Below, piece after piece: positions 25,328-38,422 of a stretch of DNA of 64,000 nucleotides. The notes under the pieces are model-generated. The model did not search any database. It saw only the letters and a list, made by a program, of their open reading frames with translations, and was not told where the DNA came from. The DNA is taken from assembly GCA_964016885.1 (NCBI GenBank), contig OZ024742.1, positions 170,190,001 to 170,254,000 of the forward strand. Reading direction: 5' to 3'. Origin of the DNA: Eledone cirrhosa. Its lineage: Eukaryota. Position 1 is the first letter of the stretch; the number at the start of each line of letters is the position of its first letter. Made by a program: the position numbers and the translations under genes.

Positions 25328-25883
25328 TGTATGTGTATATATATATATGTATATATATATATGTGTGTGTGTATATATATATATATATTTACATACAATT
25401 GAGTTCTTCATATATTTACATACATTGAGTTCTTCATACGGCTTAGACCCTACCATTAATTGGTGGATTTATCTGTATATATTTACAGATATATATATTT
25501 ATTGTTATACTTTGGGAGGGTCATGTTGCCAATAAGAAACGCCACTCCAATTTATTATAAATTAAATTTATAAATTTAAGATTTTATAAATTTCCGGTTG
25601 GTTGGTTGGTTACACACGCACGCACGCACGCACGCACACGCACGCGCACACACGCGCGCACACACACACATACACTTGGAAATTTAGTAAAATCGAATCT
25701 CTGGCGAATTTGCAAGCAAATTCGGCCTACTTATATGAAATGATGAATTAGCAAAGCACTCGGTAAGGTAGGCCCTTAGAGTAATACCATGTTTAAATAA
25801 CTTGACAAATCGAACATTGTGGTAGACAAAATCTAACACAATAATATAACAAAGTAATGATAGAACTAACATATATATATATA

Positions 25884-28168: not shown

Positions 28169-28436
28169 TATATAATATATATAAATAGGGAGAAAAATAT
28201 ATTTTTTTCCTTTTATTTTTTTCTCTTTTTTCTGGGTGAGAAAATGTTTAAAACAAAATATTTTACTTTGTGTGAAGTGTTAAGGTATTAGTTAATTTAT
28301 TTATTTATTTATTAATTAAAAATGGCATTTATTTATTTATTTATATATTTAATAATTGTCTATATATATATATATAAATTAATAAAAACAATGAAATAAA
28401 AACAAAGAACAAGTTCCTTATATTAAAAAATTCATT

Positions 28437-28560
28437 ATTTTACGATCGTTTCTTGGATGTATGTGTGTTGGTATGTATATCATATAGATCTATGTAAAAA
28501 TATTACAAATTATCAGAGGAAATATACATACCTTCACATACAAATGCCGTCCTCAGAAAT
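28437..28560 (-). ncRNA. Hammerhead ribozyme motif (mirror copy)
   Basis: Reverse complement of 28559-28682. Confidence 0.65.
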
Positions 28561-28682
28561 TTCTGAGGACGGCATGTGTATGTGAAGGTATGTATATTTC
28601 CTCTGATAATTTGTAATATTTTTACATAGATCTATATGATATACATACCAACACACATACATCCAAGAAACGATCGTAAAAT
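28559..28682 (+). ncRNA. Type I hammerhead ribozyme motif with long stem II
   Basis: ATTT-CTGAGGA-CGGCATGTGTATGTG..GGTATGTATAT...ATATACATACC..CACATACATCCAA-GAAAC-GATC-GTA-AAAT; intact core, palindromic GATC helix III, GUA triplet; stem I only 4 bp. Confidence 0.68.
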
Positions 28683-28867
28683 AATGAATTTTTTAATATA
28701 AGGAACTTGTTCTTTGTTTTTATTTCATTGTTTTTATTAATTTATCTTGACTCTGTTTTCCTATAATTTTTATCGAAAATTTTTGAATGCATCTTCTCTT
28801 TTCATGATATTTGGATTACATTGAGTTCTTCATACGGATTGGACACTACCGTATATTTTGGTAGATT

Positions 28868-28930
<63 letters not shown>

Positions 28931-28933
28931 TTC

Positions 28934-28991
<58 letters not shown>

Positions 28992-29068
28992 ATAAGGTGT
29001 GGTAAAATACCAGGTTGATCATAACCCACCAGAGTACTCGATACTTGGGGTAGTAGAGAGGGTAATAT

Positions 29069-29192
29069 GAAAAGATTCAGGGTGCCGATGGCTGAGCTCC
29101 GGGCGTTTCGACAGCTAGTTCCGAACTAAGCTTGGTTCAGATCTAGCTATCGAAACAGTTGGAGCTCAGCTGTCAGGGTCCTGAATCTTTTC
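29069..29192. other. GC-rich 124-nt imperfect hairpin
   Basis: GAAAAGATTCAGG/CCTGAATCTTTTC, GCTGAGCTCC/GGAGCTCAGC, GTTTCGA/TCGAAAC, AGCTAG/CTAGCT pair in nested order. Confidence 0.85.
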
Positions 29193-37926: not shown

Positions 37927-38422
37927 GTGTGTGTGCGCGCACATACACACACACACATACATACAGACTTACACACAGTTCATTGTTTCTGAGGAAGATG
38001 GTGAGATAATAAATAGGTGGTGAAGATATCGATTTATCATGATCAATCAACCCTCTGAAATGATCGTAAAATAGTGAACTAATTAAGAACCTTATCTTTG
38101 CCTTCTTTTTTTTGTTTTGTTCAAAACACACACAACCTATATAAACTACCAAAATGCTTGGTAATATGAAATTCTAATTCGAAAATGTAAGAATCCCAAA
38201 TGTAGGAAAAACTGCAACAGTTGTTTGCTATGAAAAAAAATGCAAAAAGTCGAATACTTTGTAGCAGCTACTGGCCACATTTTCCCATCCATAGGGGTAT
38301 TTTACCCAAATTTCTAGGCTATTATTTATAGTAATTGACTATTGTTACAGTCTTTCCTGCATGTGGGATTCCTAATTTTCTCAAAAGAATATATGTATGA
38401 CTGTAACTGTTGTTACACACCT

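Follow-up and report, generated by a model that had tools for sequence, protein, structure and literature searches.

The inverted, 5'-truncated pseudo-LTRs (pLTRs) of Penelope-like elements (PLEs), with a tail on one side only, palindromes at the junction and (TA)n targets, are already published (PMC3846280; PMC8557442), and hammerhead pairs on opposite strands, 100–700 bp apart, were noted before in Schistosoma (PMC4209133). The origin of the tandem and inverted PLE structures was named an open question (PMC8557442). For the Poseidon element PAc it was found in vitro that both target strands are cut and extended, that two internal starts bound the tail and that ribozyme mutants insert normally (Frangieh et al., 2024, PMC11167929); the inverted pLTRs and their junction go unexplained in the accessible part of that paper. 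In L1, inversions are explained by twin priming (PMC11702581). We have analysed a stretch of 64,000 nt from Eledone cirrhosa (assembly GCA_964016885.1, contig OZ024742.1, positions 170,190,001 to 170,254,000; henceforth the window) that contains a palindrome at 28374–28745. Judged by its sequence, the palindrome is a solo pLTR of a Hydra-clade PLE joined head to head to an inverted, 5'-truncated copy. The architecture is known already; the evidence on mechanism is what is new here. We consider it probable that both ends of the cut target prime reverse transcription, that both copies run off at the capped start of the RNA and that they join through AT microhomology.

The palindrome was confirmed in the assembly sequence as two arms of 186 nt each (28374–28559 and 28560–28745), with a spacer of 0 and a sole mismatch at 28543/28576; among the matches listed in the palindrome scan of the window there was no other of this size outside (TA)n tracts. 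Its axis (28559|28560) lies 3 nt 5' of CTGAGGA (28563). In the right arm GAAAC (28667) is followed directly by GATC and then by GTA (28676–28678), with the core halves 97 nt apart, and this arm runs 123 nt past the palindrome, to 28868, with a 5-bp hairpin at 28846–28864. An earlier note on this DNA had described the same geometry, the same core, spacing and GAAAC-GATC-GTA in the arms, and the same extension to a hairpin-bearing end against (CT)n, all of which we could confirm. Element positions are counted from the first C of the hammerhead core (+1) on the natural copy L012; family 1 is the family of the window palindrome and family 2 a sister family that includes the element at 2.5–7 kb of the window. 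In this numbering both window arms stop 4 nt before the core and so miss the commonest 5' end of the family (-7) by 3 nt, and the direct arm stops about 5 nt before the usual 3' end (+314). The parts of the locus are as follows.

28361–28376, unstranded: host (TA)n tract, the left target end, read from the sequence; it overlaps the first 3 nt of the inverted arm.
28374–28560, minus strand: inverted pLTR arm without tail, bounded by -4 (4 nt before the core) and by the inner start site, +185.
28559–28560, unstranded: junction, the AT common to both arms, read from the sequence.
28559–28868, plus strand: direct pLTR arm with tail, 95–97% identical to 40 scored copies.
28559–28687, plus strand: putative type I hammerhead motif, with core 28563–28569, a 97-nt stem II arm, GAAAC 28667–28671, palindromic loop GATC, predicted cut after 28678 and stem I 3' strand 28679–28687.
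28432–28560, minus strand: mirror hammerhead motif, its stem I truncated to the same degree.
28746–28868, plus strand: tail between the two probable reverse-transcription start sites (a reading by way of PMC11167929), 123 nt here and about 130 nt in the family.
28868–28989, unstranded: (CT)n tract at the right end, possibly host target, possibly a repeat that expanded from the last bases of the element.

A genome search with 28560–28868 yielded 2,056 candidates at first look; the 40 that were scored have the identity given above. The 30-base tail motif has 7,234 exact matches genome-wide, against 0 for the reversed control; for family 2 there are 11,223 tail matches. A 3' untranslated region and the end of an open reading frame (ORF) encoding GIY-YIG stand ahead of the core in many copies. 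The element body continues beyond the usual 3' end in 7 of 100 copies; these 100 were sampled by taking tail matches in order from the start of contig C1, irrespective of their 5' side. Intact ORFs of 813 aa with reverse transcriptase (RT) and GIY-YIG lie downstream of the pLTR in L177, L178, L181 and L182, a sister subfamily with 77–80% pLTR identity; in L167, of the window's own subfamily, the ORF is broken, its ATG stands at +441 and the core-to-core unit measures 3,628 bp. It is this continuity between pLTR and ORF that makes the segment a pLTR, closing one unit and serving as the 5' leader of the next.

The element protein carries RWR at 37, DKT at 115, CNC-x5-C at 673, CRLC at 771 and CNH at 799, together with DI..YY, YRDD and YIGAT. 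Its atlas rows carry the GIY-YIG and RVT_1 families; a Pfam scan of two proteins returned no match. By motif comparison with PMC8557442 the diagnostic set of the Hydra clade (RWK, DKT, CxCX5C, and CxxC and CxH next to the conserved E and N) is found, the family 2 protein having RWI in place of RWK with the other Hydra motifs present. The organization is also that of EN+ PLEs, one ORF with RT and C-terminal GIY-YIG, partial tandem or inverted pLTRs and a one-sided tail. Insertion into (TA)n, another Hydra trait, is seen in that 78 of the 100 sampled 3' ends enter AT-rich tracts (the others including (CT)n in 3, (CA)n in 4 and (ATCT)n in 3), and the inverted outer ends are alike. Units of 3,628, 3,709 and 7,035 bp exceed the length of <3 kb that is a tendency, not a rule, in this clade. 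Two other assignments were rejected: the Neptune clade (CX2-5CxxC linker and DKG), as the protein has CxCX5C and DKT, and a non-LTR retrozyme (head-to-tail and non-coding), as the arrangement is head-to-head and part of a coding element. The earlier view that the palindrome is unrelated to the 6.7-kb element elsewhere in the window is right for the nucleotides, the best match between the pLTRs of the two families being 72% over 47 nt, but not for the proteins, which share 47% identity over 471 aa and are both, by their motifs, of the Hydra clade. In the window, family 2 also forms a head-to-head pLTR pair at 6468–6927, with cores at 6655 (minus) and 6824 (plus), the tail on the minus arm and the junction some 60–70 nt upstream of the cores, where an insert of about 50 nt is found that occurs also at 5872–5920.

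The outer ends of these insertions are fixed. Direct 3' ends of family 1 fall at +310 to +314, and the inverted arms start 130–139 nt before the element end in 39 of 41 cases (41 of 42 inverted hits were kept; L107, a far-upstream match, was left out), nearly all of them abutting (TA)n at the same element position when inspected by eye. In family 2 the tails measure 80–91 nt in 13 of 16 inverted hits, and the other three (tails of 1, 148 and 518) were left out. A fixed second start near +185 matches the two RT starts that bound the tail on both strands in vitro (PMC11167929). Across the outer start both families have CTACAT and then TTGCTCC within 7 nt (L178, L167, L229, L230), a candidate recognition signal. 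Between the element end and the (TA)n target there are often repeats of the last 2–4 bases of the element, (CA)n, (CT)n or (ATCT)n (L005, L011, L022–L027, L029, L069, L082, L085, L115, L144, L159), possibly from RT stuttering at initiation or from later microsatellite growth.

The inner end is sharp. Of the 100 direct 5' ends in family 1, 27 lie at -12 to -1 and 14 of these at -7, against 2 at -50 to -13 and 3 at +1 to +12 (p ~1e-24); 39 extend beyond -100. Genome-wide there are 1,131 head-to-head junctions between two family 1 cores, whereas a control site some 105 nt further downstream has 18. In family 2 the direct ends concentrate at -71 to -67 (9 of 30) and the inverted arms end at -70 to -64 (11 of 13), and the hot spots of both families are C|A, an A after a C.

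How the two arms come to face each other can be approached through their contents. In 13 of the 41 inverted arms of family 1 the sequence reaches more than 15 nt further 5' than in the direct arm (the opposite holds in 3), and in 5 the two arms do not overlap at all. A snap-back copy cannot hold sequence that is absent from its template, so that these 13 arms point to separate priming, barring a later deletion in the direct arm. The joins, short and AT-rich where the arms overlap, tell the same story: 16 of 35 in family 1 have a 1–2-nt overlap, 5 are blunt and 14 have insertions, and in family 2 (n = 40) there are 24 with overlap and 16 with insertions. The window join is a 2-nt AT overlap, which leaves no loop at which a strand could have folded back. 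Snap-back self-priming, in which the complementary DNA (cDNA) or an antisense RNA folds back and copies itself and an endonuclease opens the hairpin at +185 so that the tail stays with only one of the arms, does account for arms that are nearly identical (those of the window have 3 rare variants in common and differ at 1 site), and the 4-nt ATAT centre frequent in family 2 joins could be a tiny loop. Self-priming was favoured by the authors of PMC3846280, and endonuclease resolution of the tail in PMC8557442. Against it there are, besides the longer or non-overlapping inverted arms and the family 1 overlaps with no room for a loop, the fact that each arm can bear its own extra G, as both do in L240, and the position of the tail between two RT starts in vitro (PMC11167929). 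We regard snap-back as improbable here. The earlier note had proposed a recurring fold-back or self-priming mechanism in more than one ribozyme-bearing family; the common integration product, with one arm extended and microsatellite flanks, is borne out, but folding back is not, given the 13 arms and the loop-free joins.

Independent priming of the two arms would leave the nature of the inner end to be explained, and here the extra G is informative. At junctions with inserted bases, 17 of 34 modal-site ends have a G beside them, compared with 2 of the 26 remaining ends (Fisher p = 6e-4); by family, the counts are 6 of 15 against 0 of 13 in family 1 and 11 of 19 against 2 of 13 in family 2. In copies that meet (TA)n directly, position -8 is a non-native G in 53 and the native C in 47 (first 100 of 139 rows, by eye), although the host tracts offer CA 1,641 times and GA 255 times, a difference of about six-fold. 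Among the first 100 of 198 rows, again read by eye, 36 have a G directly beside -7, and no other position has one beside it in more than 4. In L1, capped full-length copies are recognizable by an extra G (PMC11702581), and the Penelope transcript starts within the pLTR, the mapped start in D. virilis Penelope being position 371 (PMC2377424).

Several points weigh against a capped RNA start and double priming. The non-overlapping arms could come from later deletion in the direct arm, and the identity between arms does not tell whether one RNA or two were used: arms differ from each other at 17 of 3,934 sites, and from the nearest other copies at 27 of 3,894. All 100 sampled loci are from one contig, first in order, and in some cases a pair of them represents the two ends of a single composite insertion. 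A G suggests a cap without proving it, since RT is able to add bases at the end of any template; taken alone, the family 1 excess is modest (p = 0.06 against 20%), over half of the family 1 modal ends lack a G, and of the 34 modal ends with inserted bases 19 have none. We saw no TATA box at the usual distance from the probable RNA start at the A at -7. A reverse CCAAT-like motif 69–79 nt upstream of -7 (7 of 7 copies) was not used as promoter evidence, since the family 2 start site aligns with it too. An AATAAA stands 14 nt upstream of -7 in each of the 7 natural family 1 copies checked, and 3'-end processing may act at this family 1 site. Two primings could in that case meet at an RNA end left by 3'-end cleavage or another nuclease, or at a strong RT stop. 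A GU-rich stretch downstream of the family 1 site and the many modal ends without G agree with this, whereas the hexamer ends only 8 nt before the family 1 site, the nearest one in family 2 is more than 40 nt off, a cleaved end without a cap leaves the G found only at the modal site unexplained, and no structure would be expected to block RT at -7 once the stem I 3' strand has been copied. We think such an end unlikely.

With run-off at a capped start as the favoured explanation, the sequence of events would be the following. The element RNA would start at the A at -7. As the pLTR doubles as the 5' leader, with the ATG at +441, the RNA 5' end would be no more than 320 nt from either RT start site. 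One end of the cut (TA)n target would prime at +314 and the other at +185; each cDNA would halt at the cap, in many cases with the addition of a C, which reads as G; and the two identical cDNA 3' ends would be trimmed and joined by a template jump or by microhomology repair. In the window copy both ends would have been trimmed to -4, with AT in common, and the ribozyme would have had no role in making the palindrome. For PLEs as a whole we lean, with somewhat less assurance, towards integration by symmetric double priming from two fixed sites near the RNA 5' end, with cDNAs that run to the cap and join head to head, which in one step would give inverted pLTRs, tails and solo palindromes.

The earlier note had placed the axis in stem I of the hammerhead and had proposed to test its position relative to the core. 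Family 2 speaks against a link between axis and ribozyme: genome-wide its junctions number 2,101 about 69 nt upstream of the core and 62 at the hammerhead, 34 times fewer, so that the axis follows the C|A site and not the ribozyme. The ribozyme likely does not set the palindrome axis, which in family 1 falls in stem I only because the RNA begins there. A hammerhead could set the axis if stem I pairing or self-cleavage stopped RT and led to fold-back, or if two RNAs dimerised through the palindromic stem III. In family 1 the hot spot does coincide with the 5' strand of stem I, the palindromic stem III has a parallel in PLE hammerheads that act as dimers (PMC4209133), and 9 of the 100 direct 5' ends lie at +101 to +150, around the predicted cut. 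That cut, however, is at about +116 and not at -7, ribozyme mutants leave insertion in vitro unchanged (PMC11167929), and the same inverted structures are known from Naiad PLEs that lack canonical hammerheads (PMC8557442), all of which makes a role of the ribozyme in placing the axis very doubtful. The family 2 start site aligns with about -87 of family 1 (in the 72% match over 47 nt), where a few family 1 ends also fall (-93 to -81; L108, L115, L151); the start site may have shifted by some 80 nt in one lineage.

The hammerhead call itself rests on motifs and covariation, which make it a putative one; an Rfam scan of the window at gathering thresholds gave no match. The search for non-palindromic copies with a full stem I that the earlier note had suggested did yield such copies, with a 5' strand of 9 nt that pairs with the strand after GTA. 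In an alignment of 31 of 59 distinct copies, which are related by kinship, a type I fold (9-bp stem I, long interrupted stem II, 2-bp palindromic stem III) has 97.8% of cells paired, slid controls reaching 20–58%. There are 26 two-sided changes (0 of 500 shuffles) but only 5 covarying pairs (61 of 500 shuffles), so that covariation is support for a hammerhead and not proof. The stem II arm measures 97–115 nt, and at its base a C.A mismatch stands where G10.1-C11.1 is expected, followed by a pair that is A-U, G-U or G-C (G.A in the window copy); extra positions, unpaired or mismatched, on either side of the stem II base are tabulated for other PLE hammerheads too (PMC8557442). RNAalifold recovered stems I and II, with the core paired through and no stem III, as is to be expected for a stem of 2 bp. 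In the window 4 of 9 stem I pairs are left in both arms, the G.A mismatch near the stem II base is common to both, and the transcript is predicted to fold into one long hairpin (-303.8 kcal/mol); both window hammerhead copies are likely inactive. At 37979–38080 lies another diverged hammerhead motif of this type; its stem I is complete and its stem II arm measures about 65 nt.

The window locus is probably an ordinary, dead copy. A fold-back artefact of sequencing or assembly is conceivable for a locus known from the assembly sequence, yet we give that explanation hardly any credence: the 1,131 loci have varied junctions, the outer end is fixed against host (TA)n, the arms differ at one site, and an artefact would have included the flank as well and run on past +185. 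Taken together, thousands of young junctions in two families are a natural experiment in which the ribozyme is separated from the axis, the second arm appears primed on its own and a capped RNA start is indicated. They give base-level predictions (-7, -69, +185 and +314) for 5' mapping and for the in vitro PLE assay. If the double-priming model is true, the start of PLE transcription could be read off the palindrome axes of any genome, with no need for RNA data. Thousands of hairpin-forming insertions may also be sources of double-stranded RNA or of local instability.

Other palindrome-plus-tail elements are present. One, the third in the window, lies at 28992–29192 on the other side of the (CT)n tract, with 62-nt arms 77% complementary and a tail of about 75 nt; its relatives stand between (TA)n tracts in many loci, and no CTGANGA core is visible in its arms. 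A further one, with GAAAC-AATT-GTA hammerhead-like ends, lies in the oriented upstream flank of L013 (90–440). A 3' fragment that consists of tail only and belongs to a related subfamily lies in (TA)n at 25383–25480; it has a duplication of 26 nt. On the minus strand, 7915–10380 is an open frame of 821 codons with non-LTR RT motifs and a cysteine-rich finger, which presumably resembles RTE-type LINEs.

Our literature search found no paper that connects the inverted junctions of PLEs with twin priming or with the start of transcription, its scope leaving aside most subscription papers, the early Penelope structure papers and figures, so that the link may be in print; the part of PMC13282606 accessible to us does not discuss these structures. 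The closest relatives are the Hydra-clade PLEs, including Hydra-1_Obim and Penelope-13_HM (Craig et al., 2021, PMC8557442), which have the same single ORF with RT and C-terminal GIY-YIG and the same motif set (DKT, RW[K/R], CxCX5C, CxxC, CxH), and which are also alike in the type I hammerhead in the pLTR, the (TA)n targets and the inverted 5'-truncated 5' copy. The elements described here differ from them in a tail of about 130 nt (family 1) or 80–90 nt (family 2) instead of 30–40, in a stem II arm of 97–115 nt instead of roughly 10–25, and in a unit of 3.6–7 kb instead of <3 kb, in thousands of copies; the hammerhead listed for Hydra-1_Obim is different from that of the window. The Penelope elements of Adineta vaga (Arkhipova et al., 2013, PMC3846280) have the same head-to-head inverted pLTR, junction palindrome and one-arm tail, and an initiator-like pLTR motif. 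There, self-priming on an antisense template was proposed from a handful of copies, whereas here thousands of junctions point to two primings and to an inner end at the RNA start. The non-LTR retrozymes and minimal PLE hammerheads (PMC4209133; bioRxiv 10.64898/2026.07.22.740005) also have a type I hammerhead with palindromic stem III, but retrozymes are head-to-tail arrays and the window element is the head-to-head stump of an autonomous family. Poseidon PAc (PMC11167929) likewise has two internal RT starts, cutting and extension of both strands, an AT-rich target and a dispensable ribozyme; it belongs to another clade, its start sites are in the ORF and not in the 5' leader, and its in vitro tail is about four times shorter. 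Finally, in L1 (PMC11702581) the second target end also primes internally on the RNA, full-length 5' ends have an extra G and the joins use microhomology. The second priming site of L1 is variable, however, and the inverted part does not duplicate the direct part, whereas here both starts are fixed and close to the RNA 5' end, so that the product, unlike that of L1, is palindromic.
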